Assembly (NCBI RefSeq): GCF_965208055.1
Contig: NZ_CBDBNY010000004.1
Coordinates: 389,706 to 453,705 of the forward strand
Length of the DNA: 64,000 nt
Reading direction: 5' to 3'
Origin: Candidatus Palauibacter sp.
GTDB taxonomy: Bacteria > Gemmatimonadota > Gemmatimonadetes > Palauibacterales > Palauibacteraceae
Below, one piece after another: positions 5,529 through 24,729 of the stretch; the first letter of the stretch is position 1, and each line of letters starts with the position of its first letter. The notes below the pieces were generated by a model, which saw only the letters and a list, made by a program, of their open reading frames with translations, was not told where the DNA came from and did not search any database. A program made the position numbers and the translations under genes.

Positions 5529-8500
5529 ATGAATCGTCGCACGAACAACGTTGCCAGCGTGGACAACACCATCCCCCGTCCGGGGATGCTGGCCACCGTG
5601 CGGAACCGACGCGGCACAGTGACGTCGGTCTCCCCCTTCGACGGCGAGACGGGACGGCTACATCTCGTTCATCTCGAATACCGTGACGGCGGCTCGCCGT
5701 CCGACGAGCGTCTGCTGTGGGAACTCGAGCCGCGCAAGACCCTCCTTGAGCCGACCGCATTACCGGACGCTTCCCGCTCCGATCCCATGCCTCCGGCCGA
5801 TTTCGACGCTCTGCTACGGGCCGCGCGATGGACCGCGCTGTCGCCGTACCTGGGTCTCGATGGCAAGGGTCGCGAGGAGGGTGAGGAGGTAGTCGCGAGC
5901 CCCTTCCACGGCGGCGTGCGCGTCGAGGACTTCCAGCTTGCCCCTCTCCTGCAGGCACTGCGGATGCCTCGCGTCAGCCTGCTCATTGCCGATGATGTAG
6001 GGCTGGGGAAGACGATCGAGGCGAGCCTGATCCTCACGGAACTCCTCCTCCGGCGTCGCATCCGGCGGGTCCTCGTGCTCACGCCCGCCACGCTGCGCGA
6101 CCAATGGAGGGAGGAGTTGTGGGAGAAGTTCTCGCTGTCCTTTCAGGTGGTCGACCGCCAGACGACGGAAGACCTACGGCGTAATCTCGGCATCGACGCA
6201 AACCCATGGCGGTCGTTCAGCCGGATCATCGCCTCGTACCATTACCTGCGGCAGCCGGATGTGTGCGAGCAGTTTCTGTCGGCATGCGTGACGCCGGAAG
6301 GGACACCCCACCTGCCGTGGGATCTGTTGATCGTGGACGAGTGTCACAACCTCATGCCGGCGGCATTCGGGGAGGACAGCCAGCTTTGCCGTACGCTCGG
6401 TCTCGTGGCGCCCCGCTTCGAGCACCGCGTGTTTCTCTCGGCCACCCCTCACAACGGCCATACGCGTTCGTTTACGGGGCTGCTTGAAATGCTCGATCCC
6501 GTTCGCTTCACGCGCACGAGCCGTATGGGGCCCGCCATGCACCAGCGGGTCAATGATGTGTTCATTCGCAGGCTGAAGCGGGACATCAACGCCGGTGCCT
6601 CGGGGCCGCGCTTTTGCACTCGAAACCCGCCTCGCGCCCTGTCCCTCGCGACCAACCCGCGCGAAGCCGAACTGGCGGCCGCCTTTGACGCGTTTCGCGC
6701 CGCGGTCGGGCGGCTTGTCGCCGCCGGGACAAAGGGCCGCCGCCGTGCCGGCACGTTCGCCGTGGAGGTGCTGAATAAGCGGCTGCTCTCCTGCCCCGCC
6801 GCGTTCGCGGATTCCTGGCAGCGCACGATGCGGGGGATGTCCGAGGAAGCCGTCACGGATACCGATGTCGCGGTGGCGGAGCGCGTCGTGAGGCGCAGGA
6901 CCGGAGACGACAGGGAAGCGCAACAGCGCCAAGCGACGGCGGCCGCCGTCGTCGGCGGCTGGCTGAGGAACTATCGAGACGATCTGGAGCACGAAATCCG
7001 GCGCATCCAACGCGCTGTTGAAGCCCTCGGATTCGACGACGACGAGCCACCGCCCACGGAACGGACGCCCACCGAAGACGCGCGCTTCGACAAGCTGGTG
7101 GAGTTGGTCGAGGAGTTGTTGAGGCGGGAGAGCGGATTCCGGGAAGACGAACGACTGATCATCTTCACGGAGTACAAGACGACGCTCGACTACTTGGCGA
7201 ACCGGCTGCGGCGGCAGTATCGGGAGGACCGGGTGTTGACGCTGTTCGGAATGGGCGGTCCGGGCGGCATGGGCACGACCGAGCGCGACAGCGTCAAGGC
7301 CGCGTTCAACGATCCGGACGCAGATGTGCGCATCCTCGTCGCGACGGATGCTGCTTCGGAGGGCCTCAACCTCCACCGCACCGCCCGCTATCTTCTGCAC
7401 TACGACTGCCCGTGGAATCCGTCCCGTCTGGAACAGCGGAACGGACGCCTCGACCGCTACGGGCAGGCCCGCGACGTCACGGTGCATCATTTCGACAGCG
7501 CCGCCGACGCCGACGTTCGCTTCCTCGGCCATGTGATCCGCAAGGCGGACGAAATCCGTGAGGATCTGGGTTCCGCAAACGAGGTCTTCGATCGCGCCGT
7601 CCGGCGCCGGCTCATCCGGGGGGAGGATTCGAGCCTTGTACAGAACGCTCTCGATTTGGGCATTGGCGCGGTACGAGACGACGGGCTGAGCGGGTTCGAC
7701 GCATCGCTTGCCGTGCGCGACGGACATGAGCATCTGGTCGACCTGCCGGAAGCGCTGGCTGACGCCATCGAGCTGAGCGGCCCTGCGATGGCGGAGACGC
7801 TGGAGGCCGCGATGGCGTCGGGTCCGCCGCCGCAGCTTGAGCCCTGCGGGGAGCCCGAGCTGTACAGGCTTCGGCAGCCCGACCTTCCCGGGTGGCGGAA
7901 CGTGATCGATCGCTCCGTGCGCAGACCTCCGGCAAGCCCGATGGGCGCGTTGGAACCCGTCCGCAAGCTCGCGTTCGGCCCGAGTCCGTTCATCGAGCGG
8001 CTCGGCGACTTCGATGTGTTCCAGACCCGACCGGACGCGCTCCTGCTGCACTTGGCGCACCCGATGATGAAGCGCGCCCTCGGCTCGCTCACCCGGCGGC
8101 GCTATCCGGGCGAGAGCGGTGTGTCGCGTTGGACGGTGCGGCGCGGTGGCGTGAAGCCCGGCGATGAAGCCCTCATCCTCCTCAGCTTCGAGGAACTCGG
8201 CGTGAACGAACTCCGGGAAACGTTTCACCGCTGGGTGGGGACCGTCGCCTTTCCGGTCCGGGACGGACGGATCGGGAGTCCGTCCCCGGCTGTGTCGCGA
8301 GCCTTGCTCGGGAACGGGTGCGCCACGAACGATTCCGGGGACCGGGACCTCGCGCGCGAGCTGCTCGGCGATGCGAGTTCGCTCCTGCGGAAGTGGCTGC
8401 TGAAGCACGAGAGCGACCTTACGCGGAGGCTGCGGATCCAGATGGAGGCCGATGAGGCGGCGGCCAGGAGCCGGGAGGACGAGCGTTACCGGAGTCAGGA

Positions 8501-24700: not shown

Positions 24701-24729
24701 ACTGTAGTCGCGTGTGGTCCCGGGGCTGA
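18724..24729 (+). CDS. 2001-aa fusion protein: DEAD/DEAH helicase with zinc-ribbon insertions, DUF1998 (MrfA-Zn-like) module, DUF559-like PD-(D/E)xK module and LexA-type S24 peptidase domain
   Basis: Motifs seen:
- Walker A GTGSGKT at aa 116-122.
- DEAH at aa 272-275.
- Four CxxC pairs at aa 525-644.
- CxxC...Cx4C at aa 970-991.
- Motif VI QRAGRAGRR at aa 1080-1088.
- DUF1998-like Cys clusters GYPVCTICGQ and GCPSVCGSSCIDC.
- TPDVIY...CIYLDG...RDREIRHWLRGSGYEVLEI.
- C-terminal VPLVPLRAAAGAF, GRSMEP and FTVKRY.

The start may be TTG 18724 or ATG 18733. Confidence 0.9.
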   Translation: MASMALNPVAYIEKVAKSFLRYQLTAYPFSDPHLLGQMRELLSLDHTRASPLLRGPYVSLSRPFRAGASVEQMVDEGLLHTHLATRIPSRITHFYSHQEQAIRAIAEGRTTLISTGTGSGKTECFLYPVVSQALSLRDESAAPGVSAVIVYPMNALAEDQLMRIRGLLAGTGVPFGIYVGKTPERESDVVGAKLRPGSSREDYLARLEKARRDGTGESVYPSEEVCSRQAMRTPGKQPRILLTNVKQLELLLTRQKDIELFEDARLDHLVFDEAHTFTGAMGAETACLIRRLRSFCNIDPGHTTCIATSATIADSREPGAARDFAARFFGVPAGEVLTVGEDYEAETWGEPRVVPPTPDGDPSRILDRSVRAVEDATGADVARAYRSLSGGDLPAQDDGDWPGALHAALARNELVYRLNEQLAGPRALDELPKALERHVGRPVTEAEILTWLTLGAAARRAGRPLLRPVIHGFVRGIGGSVVSFPEDRERARLWLTARDDAPSDVFEGGPEPRGDEYAHLPVTTCTVCGQHYYIAFLKDFSFTGKRPGGGEADRDGMHWAPLDETNGGKRVVLVDRLIGETERDGEASAPRRTAPIHLCRRCGAAHGDHADRCRACGRVGATVALHAIRQNADNPGRLTSCLSCGSNGRRVMGRYREPARPVRAVTVADVHVLTQDMVHHAERPRLLVFCDNRQDAAFQAGWMKDHARRFRLRALMAEGIREHPGGSVGDLAAFLDDRLEREETLSRALAPEVWQVARREGSGGRHARERRKYLRIQVLREVALSARQALGLEPWGRLKVEYAGLSASLPWIQEQANRLGIPADRLRDGVASVLDYFRRRGALLDPEYNLFTRYWDEGSAEVQQGFLPGFIKPLGLKLRRGPEEKSEWVMQWLSSAGDTTMRQIARKWGEPTDSVEPFLEGLFAFLVRRKLVKPVRLLGARGRPLPNLENVHQVNGDALRLDPNKGVYRCAKCRRTTTRELPHRLCPAWRCDGALKWIPENPDDYNLQLLDQAYSMLRPEEHTAMVPNDHRERLENWFKGESNAVNCLVCTPTLELGIDIGRLDSVLMRNVPPLPANYWQRAGRAGRRHRMAVNMTYCRPVSHDRAYFAEPPKLLDGRIDPPAFNLRNEVMVAKHVHATVIAALHRHGRDPRRPEAERRRTREVLAACLPQRVKPYLFDHGVVRREPFDFDLLRELVRDNRSDLVDRVCGVFSGGWPEEDSDVVTPDALRMHVDEFADELETVVTRLRRRLRWAMDQIRRLNALREKHGTLEGEDEALFRRCGRLVARLKGEDRGRRHAEGHDSSITFSVLAAEGFLPGYGLETGYVMAWAEIPFWLDGAMDFVLPRAPATALREYVPGNLIYANGHRFVARRFHRDFADERVEMPVYEVSSAHQAVRETSVGASSSLAGETLQAMAVCDVDLSHTSHISDDEELRFQLGVAVYGLELGQHSGGRAYGWGERPLLMRRGVRMRLVNVGASEPIRARDSFGYPVCTICGQSVSPLSSQPQRRSFRESHGQRCGREPRRIGFYADIAADALSLPECVNATQADSVLEALRIGATRVLDMHMEDLQILVIGEMGRDEVLGLLWDPMAGGSGLLDRLCERFAEIVAVAREVVEGCPSVCGSSCIDCLQTFRNAYYHSSLDRRAALDALGEWGEQLAFRHDVPPRQPASTPADDAVPVNLAERKLRHLLLRAGFGEGTRGEQIRLDSALGTTTPDVIYREDDDGFCKGVCIYLDGMSAHLHGSPETAARDREIRHWLRGSGYEVLEIPANELDDEGAMTGHFRRLANYLGQPNRGRDLSDDRSWFADPDPSGKTDDPADIPRLRLVTPTPESRYRTCVPLVPLRAAAGAFGDPNETLDEWDRDWVAVNTVRRLRDGMFVARVTGRSMEPRIPDGSYCLFASPVTGSRQGRTVLVIMRDDVDPETGARFTVKRYRSEKTEDENGWRHAKISLEPTNPDFDPIILRVDDEAAVGVVAELVEVIGLTPPLNCSRVWSRG

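Follow-up and report, generated by a model that had tools for sequence, protein, structure and literature searches.

Between positions 5.2 and 24.7 kb of a 64,000-nucleotide stretch of a Candidatus Palauibacter sp. genome (contig NZ_CBDBNY010000004.1, forward-strand positions 389,706 to 453,705; hereafter the window, whose own numbering is used throughout) lies a genomic island that very probably constitutes an ARMADA Type I anti-phage system, arranged in the order armA–armB–[cargo]–armC. The locus is of a kind already described, ARMADA having been reported in 2025 (Bell et al., 2025, bioRxiv 10.1101/2025.09.15.676423; PMC12458937). A first-pass annotation of this DNA had recognized a defense locus akin to class 1 DISARM and to Druantia, a kinship that profile matches and the relationship of ARMADA itself to both systems bear out, but had gone on to claim that no described system matches the combination, whereas ARMADA Type I does (PMC12458937). 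The copy in the window is most likely inactive, as its armB gene carries an in-frame stop codon. The residual novelty resides in a LexA-type S24 peptidase module that ends ArmC and in a slot for exchangeable genes between armB and armC.

As published, ARMADA centers on a YprA-family helicase whose nearest relative is Druantia DruE, and has in common with DISARM class I a BrxHII/RapA/DrmD-like SNF2 helicase and a PglX/DrmMI-like methylase (PMC12458937). Instead of relying on a separate PLD gene, its ArmC carries a fused C-terminal Vsr-type nuclease, a domain assigned to the Type I ArmC representative, and in the published tree the ARMADA-type helicases form a clade apart from DISARM (PMC12458937). 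Type II comprises armABCD, in which ArmD consists of a GajB-like UvrD helicase fused to RelE; Type I lacks armD (PMC12458937). In E. coli, Type II provides direct, non-abortive protection against phages, for which every gene as well as the ArmB NPPW motif is needed (PMC12458937). According to the published data, EDL933 mutants deleted for armA, armB or armC separately undergo lysis on infection with Bas18.

Three core genes and their assignment to ARMADA Type I

All three arm genes lie on the forward strand. The SNF2 helicase, the large N6-adenine methyltransferase and the 2001-aa helicase/DUF1998/S24 open reading frame (ORF) that had been read from the sequence at first pass are all present by Pfam, PADLOC and NCBIfam. 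The first gene, armA (5262–8834), encodes a DrmD/BrxHII-like SNF2-family helicase of 1190 aa with SNF2-rel_dom and Helicase_C domains, a Walker A motif (GLGKT, 6000–6014) and a DECH motif (6336–6347). It matches DrmD in PADLOC at 1e-190 and the NCBIfam DISARM_DrmD equivalog at 652.8 bits (cut-off 610), and shares 28% identity with E. coli ArmA (E 1e-58). Its start codon is uncertain, the first ~100 aa being conserved in close relatives only; the start previously placed at 5529 is in the same frame as the ORF 5262–8834.

The second gene, armB (8831–14263), spans 1810 codons for an N6-adenine DNA methyltransferase of the DrmMI/PglX/Type IIG-like kind and is a probable pseudogene. The product matches DrmMI in PADLOC at 1e-120 and Pfam Eco57I at 4e-20, its best PADLOC match being a Type IIG restriction enzyme–methyltransferase model at 1046 bits, and it aligns to E. 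coli ArmB with 23% identity (E 2e-23). The S-adenosylmethionine-binding motif DPACGSGSF (aa 650; 10778–10804) and the catalytic motif NPPW (aa 961; 11711–11722) both stand 5′ of the stop codon discussed below. A Pfam-type scan of the N-terminal 600 aa detected no nuclease domain, the Type IIG model being the top PADLOC match nonetheless.

The third gene, armC (18724–24729), encodes a YprA-family, DruE-like helicase and putative nuclease in a 2001-aa ORF that opens with TTG 18724. Since homologues begin with MALNPVAY, the start is probably ATG 18733; residue numbers are nevertheless counted here from TTG 18724. Pfam assigns to the protein the DEAD, Helicase_C, MZB (DUF1998) and Peptidase_S24 domains, and the helicase core carries a Walker A motif (GSGKT, 19075) and a DEAH motif (19537–19548). 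Four invariant CxxC pairs (C525/C528, C599/C602, C613/C616 and C641/C644) would fit the zinc-binding modules that, together with other inserts of BrxA-like and MarR-like kind, characterize ARMADA Type I between RecA1 and RecA2. Further downstream lies the MZB/DUF1998 zinc-binding domain (23386–23622; Pfam MZB 3.7e-6), with a four-Cys cluster, CPSVCGSSCIDCL (23584–23622), whose cysteines are kept in 105–109 of 109 homologues.

In PADLOC, ArmC matches DruE3 (1e-100) and DruE1 (8e-99) far better than DrmA (8e-15), with 336 bits for the DruE models against 52 bits for DrmA, and a profile search of the PDB returned two helicase chains of ~2000 aa (9tu7 and 9wae) together with YprA (6znp). By BLASTP, the protein aligns end-to-end with E. 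coli ArmC (WP_000937974.1) at 23% identity (window aa 8–1638, E 1e-66), whereas the neighboring E. coli DruE yields three short local segments only. Table S1 of the ARMADA paper, insofar as available, gives “ARMADA Type I helicase” for three contigs with related helicases (PMC12458937): JBBAAN010000016.1, with 65% ArmC identity over residues 4–1987, S24 included; JAFGRP010000085.1, a 17-kb contig that holds a single such helicase, 64% identical over the full length, S24 again included; and DATHYN010000093.1, with 49% identity. Accessions of the closest Gemmatimonadota relatives do not appear in the available part of that table, and membership thus rests on these three contigs, whose ArmC identity of 49–65% marks them as more distant. 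Downstream of armC there is just a short ORF followed by the reverse-strand aminotransferase gene, and armD was not found in the window. Taken together, the match to E. coli ArmC, the Table S1 contigs and the lack of armD lead to the assignment of the locus, with high confidence, to ARMADA Type I. Current tools mislabel such a system: PADLOC returns DrmD, a Type IIG enzyme and DruE, and NCBIfam, which contains no ARMADA models, would label ArmA “DISARM DrmD”.

The region of ArmC that corresponds to the published Vsr-type nuclease requires more caution. A putative PD-(D/E)xK domain of the Vsr/DUF559-like kind extends over aa ~1680–1800 (23761–24123), as suggested by residues invariant among 109 homologues (D1720, D1739, H1746, D1755 and R1759) and by an AlphaFold2 (AF2) model of residues 1676–1812 with an alpha/beta core (mean predicted local distance difference test score, pLDDT, of 81). 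With this model as query, the best Foldseek matches were TnsA, Vsr (1cw0) and the homing endonuclease I-Bth0305I (3r3p; TM 0.51/0.68), all at E >0.05. Sequence-based searches returned nothing significant, whether Pfam scans of fragments for Vsr/DUF559 nucleases (E up to 10), a hidden Markov model (HMM) profile of 19 ArmC nuclease-domain sequences run against PDB sequences, or a phmmer search of the C-terminal 342 aa against the PDB for Vsr/DUF559 matches. The DUF559-like nuclease proposed at first pass therefore draws some weak structural support from Foldseek, while HMMER finds nothing of it; the model is consistent with a Vsr-type nuclease but does not prove one.

Conserved linkage across genomes

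Homologues of ArmC number in the thousands. Full-length proteins of the same architecture, 60–86% identical, occur in Gemmatimonadota, Acidobacteriota, Planctomycetota, Actinomycetota, Spirochaetia, Proteobacteria and other groups, and such high full-length identity across unrelated phyla indicates horizontal spread. The survey covered 46 armC-seeded and 80 armB-seeded loci. In every armB-seeded locus that shows upstream DNA, armA lies immediately 5′ of armB; armC follows 3′ on the same strand within the visible region in 39 of them and, judged from contig coordinates, in another 9. In all 48 loci that hold both genes, drawn from many phyla and one archaeon, the order and orientation A–B–(gap)–C are identical; the A–B–C order is widespread, occurring in many phyla of bacteria. 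Between the end of armB and the start of armC lie ~0.1 to ~20 kb, with the two genes directly adjacent in 12 loci; in ~18 armB loci, no armC is visible within ~8 kb. No conserved fourth gene follows armC across the loci beyond lineage-specific synteny. The first-pass annotation had named a lack of conserved linkage between the SNF2/methylase pair and the helicase as one of the outcomes that would overturn its interpretation; that linkage proves to be conserved.

A disrupted armB and a decaying lineage

The methyltransferase gene is interrupted. Two ORFs, 8831–12349 and 12392–14263, share one frame with a single TAG between them, and they match consecutive parts of the same PADLOC model, REase_MTase_IIG PDLC03622 (model positions 3–1056 and 1150–1497, respectively). 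The TAG, at codon 1173 (12347–12349; the frame reads LDD*ERAEDVG), replaces a conserved tryptophan codon, which is TGG in 16 of 16 and 66 of 67 homologous loci (82 of 83 in all). The split match, the common frame and the TAG in place of TGG together identify armB as one 1810-codon gene with a nonsense mutation, of which ORF 12392–14263, as read from the sequence, is the C-terminal part and no separate gene. The large methylase noted at first pass is present, with its start at 8831, as a single gene whose break had been overlooked.

The stop codon removes the last 638 codons, that is, the C-terminal third of armB, including its putative specificity region. Within that third, a mosaic, hypervariable segment (aa ~1400–1600; 13028–13630) drops to 23–62% identity with relatives, against 70–94% in the rest of the protein, and different relatives carry common alleles in mosaic fashion, as would be expected of a swapped target-recognition region; on this pattern, the segment is likely the target-recognition or specificity region. 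Because armB is required for defense in E. coli ARMADA II, the copy in the window is most likely non-functional; armA and armC look intact.

A sister genome (locus L037; OY762926.1, 1988–14180) carries a decayed island at the identical gcvT–aminotransferase site. There, residue ~212 of armA is fused to the last ~175 codons of armB, most of both genes having been deleted; the first ~1380 codons of armC are gone, leaving the last ~590; and an insertion of ~1.3 kb interrupts orf425, one of the cargo genes described below. Frame changes or truncations of armB also occur, at differing positions, at four loci in related Gemmatimonadota genomes (L048, L050, L052 and L054), one of which is a NODE_ short-read-style assembly; the broken genes show no common repeat tract of the sort suggestive of phase variation. 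Taken together, the TAG in the window, the deletions in the sister genome and the related armB breaks make it appear that the ARMADA system is decaying in this lineage.

The LexA-type S24 tail of ArmC

The tail of ArmC (aa 1844–1985; 24253–24678) is a LexA-type S24 peptidase module, so that the S24 assignment made at first pass is upheld by Pfam, by Foldseek and by the conserved Ser, Lys and Ala–Gly residues. Pfam Peptidase_S24 matches at 2.5e-8 with the whole protein and at 3.5e-10 with a fragment. The dyad residues Ser1891 (24394–24396) and Lys1936 (24529–24531) are kept in 109 and 104 of the 109 full-length homologues, and the residues of a candidate cleavage site, Ala1852–Gly1853 (24277–24282), in 106 and 102. 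This site is nominated by its sequence context and spacing: an Ala-Ala-Ala-Gly motif, within VPLVPLxAAAGxFGDP, stands 39 residues upstream of the serine. Foldseek searches with the AF2 model of this part retrieved C-terminal domains of LexA, a fragment of lambda CI with the cleavage site in it, and UmuD′ (E 3e-5 to 4e-3). From this conservation, the module appears to be active across a large ArmC subclade.

Close relatives of ArmC of ~1810 aa, up to 78% identical, stop just past the putative nuclease domain, which implies that the S24 module is readily gained and lost. It is not confined to ArmC: used by itself as query against a 50%-representative protein library, the module returned 1821 matches. 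The closest copies (45–70% identity; query window 24241–24726; proteins P0294–P0443) are located C-terminally in many unrelated proteins, among them Type ISP-like enzymes (Eco57I methylase plus Type_ISP_C), an MmeI-like enzyme of Type IIG, a protein resembling HsdR, a PLD plus ResIII helicase, other helicases, and proteins in which HNH, LlaJI, McrBC or Schlafen/AlbA_2 domains occur. Among 53 carriers of this sort, the Ala-Ala-Gly motif, the serine and the lysine are invariant or nearly so. The module of ArmC is absent from the main text of the ARMADA paper (PMC12458937), and we found no description of S24 fused to defense or restriction proteins in the literature, of which the searchable part is incomplete.

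These observations suggest that the S24 module of ArmC could act as a self-cleaving switch that cuts at Ala1852/Gly1853, probably stimulated by RecA filaments on single-stranded DNA (ssDNA). Cleavage would either license the helicase–nuclease by releasing it, or shut it off during host DNA repair. The shut-off option, which would amount to built-in restriction alleviation, is attractive because many of the other S24 carriers are restriction-type or restriction–modification enzymes. Extending this idea, we tentatively raise the possibility, to which we give somewhat less than even weight, that the module is a portable self-cleaving sensor that caps unrelated DNA-targeting defense enzymes and couples restriction-type immunity to the RecA–ssDNA (SOS) signal, whether for built-in alleviation, by which unmethylated host DNA would be spared once damage has occurred, or for activation triggered by phage ssDNA. 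If the module does respond to RecA filaments, restriction-type immunity would be tied to the SOS/ssDNA signal in a simple and testable way.

The cargo slot between armB and armC

Three genes occupy the armB–armC gap in the window. The first (14275–15480, forward strand) starts with GTG after GGAG and encodes a 401-aa protein with Schlafen-like AlbA_2 and ATPase domains (Pfam SLFN_AlbA_2, 1.8e-16; HATPase_c_4, 2.4e-18). The last (16988–18550, reverse strand) encodes a 520-aa Fic-domain protein (Pfam Fic, 2.3e-13) that resembles PDC-S04 (5.4e-16) and SoFic (4.1e-14) in PADLOC. Pfam thus agrees with the earlier reading of an AlbA_2-type ATPase and a reverse-strand Fic gene between methylase and helicase. 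The middle gene, orf425 (15623–16900, forward strand), fares differently. An NDT/TIR-like cassette had been proposed here at first pass; orf425 has no Pfam or NCBIfam match, an exact look-up of its product returned no record, and its assignment as a TIR or NDT effector finds no backing past a single weak PADLOC match (1.9e-8), which falls on the C-terminal part of a model that bears the label TIR effector. The family of orf425 is widespread and has a ~290-aa core devoid of Pfam domains; one 736-aa member (P0254) is fused to HsdM-type N6_Mtase domains. Because of its low GC content at third codon positions (GC3, ~0.6), orf425 was probably acquired recently. Another ORF, orf173 (16901–17422, forward strand, 173 aa), is most likely spurious: it overlaps the Fic gene at the 3′ end of the latter, on the opposite strand, and the codon-position GC fits the minus-strand frame.

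Fifty ORFs from the armB–armC gaps of related loci were scanned. Represented among them are Septu PtuA, AbiEi/AbiEii, DarG/macro proteins (DarTG), CBASS (a CD-NTase together with E1/E2 and patatin), AriA- and GajA-like ATPases, TIR_2 and Fic, one protein with a DruA domain, and several insertion-sequence transposases. The DruA domain of that one ORF (Pfam PF14236, 3.5e-43) represents a Druantia type I component inside an ARMADA locus. The AlbA_2 gene is the only cargo that recurs often near ARMADA, in some loci only and at varying positions. Turnover is fast. In a locus whose ArmC is 98% identical (L129:712-7845), a CD-NTase plus patatin (CBASS-like) module and a helix-turn-helix (HTH) gene stand between the AlbA_2 and Fic genes, in place of orf425. 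Since the cargo changes even at 98% ArmC identity, the AlbA_2, orf425 and Fic genes of the window read as passengers rather than core components, in keeping with the initial view of them as unrelated inserts; from their gene content and distribution, they would be independent defense passengers in a fast-changing slot.

An AT-rich intergenic region (18551–18732) lies between the divergently oriented Fic gene (reverse strand) and armC (forward strand), and armC therefore probably has its own promoter and is not co-transcribed with armAB. Promoter and terminator scans gave background levels, and the search for repeats or att-like boundaries around the cargo (14000–19000) gave short, chance-level matches only.

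Genomic setting

The window has a G+C content of ~67%. The island (5.2–24.7 kb) is flanked by the glycine-cleavage T gene, gcvT (4051–5199, reverse strand), and by a class-V aminotransferase gene (25507–26880, reverse strand); GC3 exceeds 0.9 in both flanking genes, against ~0.6–0.8 in the island genes. Genes elsewhere in the window have ordinary functions (RecQ, a PQQ dehydrogenase, thioredoxin-like proteins and peptidases, for example), and the window as a whole contains no tRNA genes. Among public sequences, the nearest relatives come from metagenome-assembled genomes, those of Candidatus Palauibacter and of other Gemmatimonadota and Longimicrobiales, and the host chromosome is of this Palauibacter/Longimicrobiales-like Gemmatimonadota kind.

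On the other side of gcvT (1754–3423, reverse strand) is a second candidate defense module, composed of an AAA_21/AAA_15 ATPase, which resembles HEC-01A in PADLOC (1.6e-25) and also mad3 and PDC-M25A, followed by a 258-aa ORF in which no known domain was found. A pair homologous to this module directly follows armC in one of the surveyed loci (L027).

Proposed mechanism

How an intact version of this system might operate can be inferred from its homology to ARMADA Type II of E. coli, DISARM, BREX and Druantia. ArmB would methylate adenines at N6 and thereby mark host DNA, the target motif being recognized by the hypervariable C-terminal region of the enzyme. ArmA would serve as an SNF2 translocase, and ArmC as a helicase with an OB–CON–DUF1998 canopy and a fused PD-(D/E)xK nuclease. 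Together, ArmA and ArmC may engage invading DNA, translocate on it and unwind it, upon which the ArmC nuclease would cut and the cell would survive; all three arm genes would be needed. In recent Druantia III preprints, DruE is portrayed as a helicase–nuclease acting on ssDNA-containing replication intermediates.

Alternative explanations

How else might the same genes be read? It is conceivable that the island merely juxtaposes two independent neighbors, a Type IIG-like restriction–modification enzyme with its SNF2 partner and a stand-alone helicase–nuclease. The 1046-bit Type IIG match of ArmB, the gaps of up to 20 kb before armC and the ~18 armB loci that show no armC nearby all speak for such an arrangement, which we consider unlikely given that order and orientation are the same in 48 of 48 loci across many phyla and one archaeon, with 12 of them directly adjacent, that no nuclease domain was detected at the ArmB N-terminus, and that E. 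coli ARMADA II needs all of its genes together. Quite improbable, too, is a variant of class 1 DISARM in which DrmA and DrmB have been fused and a C-terminal nuclease and peptidase stand in place of DrmC. Such a variant would explain why ArmA passes the DISARM_DrmD cut-off, why ArmB matches DrmMI at 1e-120 and why the helicase comes with DUF1998; yet the helicase scores 336 bits with DruE against 52 bits with DrmA and aligns end-to-end with E. coli ArmC, the helicase and DUF1998 occupy one gene with no PLD gene beside it, and helicases of this sort fall into a clade separate from DISARM (PMC12458937). The absence of a PLD/DrmC-type gene had been pointed out at first pass, and indeed no PLD domain occurs among the window ORFs scanned.

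The strength of the DruE matches brings up Druantia itself, either type III-like or of a new type, with a DruE that has acquired S24 and with the SNF2/methylase pair as an unrelated neighbor. Besides DruE3 and DruE1 as best PADLOC matches, protein size fits DruE, and the best PDB match is a DEAD/DEAH helicase chain of ~2100 aa (9tu7) that is DruE-sized and unnamed in the output. We nonetheless regard a Druantia system as very improbable: no protein of the island or its flanks matches DruH, DruA–D or DruM/F/G in PADLOC, the C-terminal PLD domains are missing, similarity to E. coli DruE is confined to three local segments, and the armA–armB linkage is conserved across phyla. We give next to no credence to a housekeeping repair helicase of the YprA/MrfA or Lhr type. 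The 2001-aa protein does have the DEAD, Helicase_C and MZB core common to YprA/MrfA, but it resides in a lower-GC3 island between core genes, keeps 60–79% full-length identity across unrelated phyla, as befits horizontal transfer, is always accompanied by armA, armB and defense cargo, and is deleted in the sister genome.

Several considerations weigh against our identification of a decayed ARMADA Type I system with an S24 switch. Experiments cover ARMADA Type II alone, and the function of Type I is predicted; furthermore, Type I is usually armC-first, with the reversed order found mainly in archaea and cyanobacteria (PMC12458937). The Vsr-type nuclease, typical of ArmC according to the same paper, gained no significant support in our searches. 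The cargo and the reverse-strand Fic gene part armC from armAB, so that their co-regulation is not assured. As for inactivation, the TAG may have arisen from faulty assembly or represent a variant within the population, and the armB frame breaks in related metagenome-assembled genomes may reflect either recurrent inactivation or sequencing and assembly artefacts. Finally, the cleavage-site loop of the S24 module is modelled at pLDDT <50, and self-cleavage of ArmC and its response to RecA are predictions from sequence and model.

Comparison with known systems

The locus resembles ARMADA Type I in composition: the same three genes, no ArmD, and an ArmC near DruE with a putative C-terminal non-PLD nuclease region. 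The window departs from the published Type I in its A–B–C order, its cargo slot of 0.1–20 kb, the S24 tail on ArmC and the broken armB. Beyond the published description, then, the A–B–C order is widespread, the armB–armC junction emerges as a turnover slot for defense systems, and S24 is present in a large ArmC subclade. ARMADA Type II of E. coli (NCTC 12900, ATCC 8739 and EDL933 z5899–z5902) has homologous ArmA, ArmB and ArmC (28%, 23% and 23% identity, respectively) in the same A–B–C order; unlike it, the window lacks ArmD, the alignment with E. coli ArmC ends at window residue 1638, and the sequences are very divergent.

With DISARM class 1 (drmD, drmMI, drmA, drmB, drmC), the locus has in common an SNF2 helicase past the DrmD cut-off, an adenine methylase and a helicase with DUF1998, whereas it differs in combining helicase and DUF1998 in a single protein of the DruE/ArmC clade and in having no PLD DrmC. 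Druantia DruE (types I–III) provides the best PADLOC and PDB matches and resembles ArmC as a YprA-family helicase of ~2000 aa with DUF1998 and a C-terminal nuclease region (putative in ArmC), but the Druantia partner genes and PLD domains are wanting and similarity to E. coli DruE is local only. Where DruE of Druantia type III bears two C-terminal PLD-like nucleases, ArmC has a PD-(D/E)xK-like region and S24 instead. The S24 module, for its part, resembles LexA, lambda CI and UmuD in fold, in its Ser–Lys dyad, and in an Ala–Gly site at matching spacing, ~39 residues before the serine; unlike in those proteins, it ends a 2000-aa helicase and putative nuclease rather than following a DNA-binding domain.

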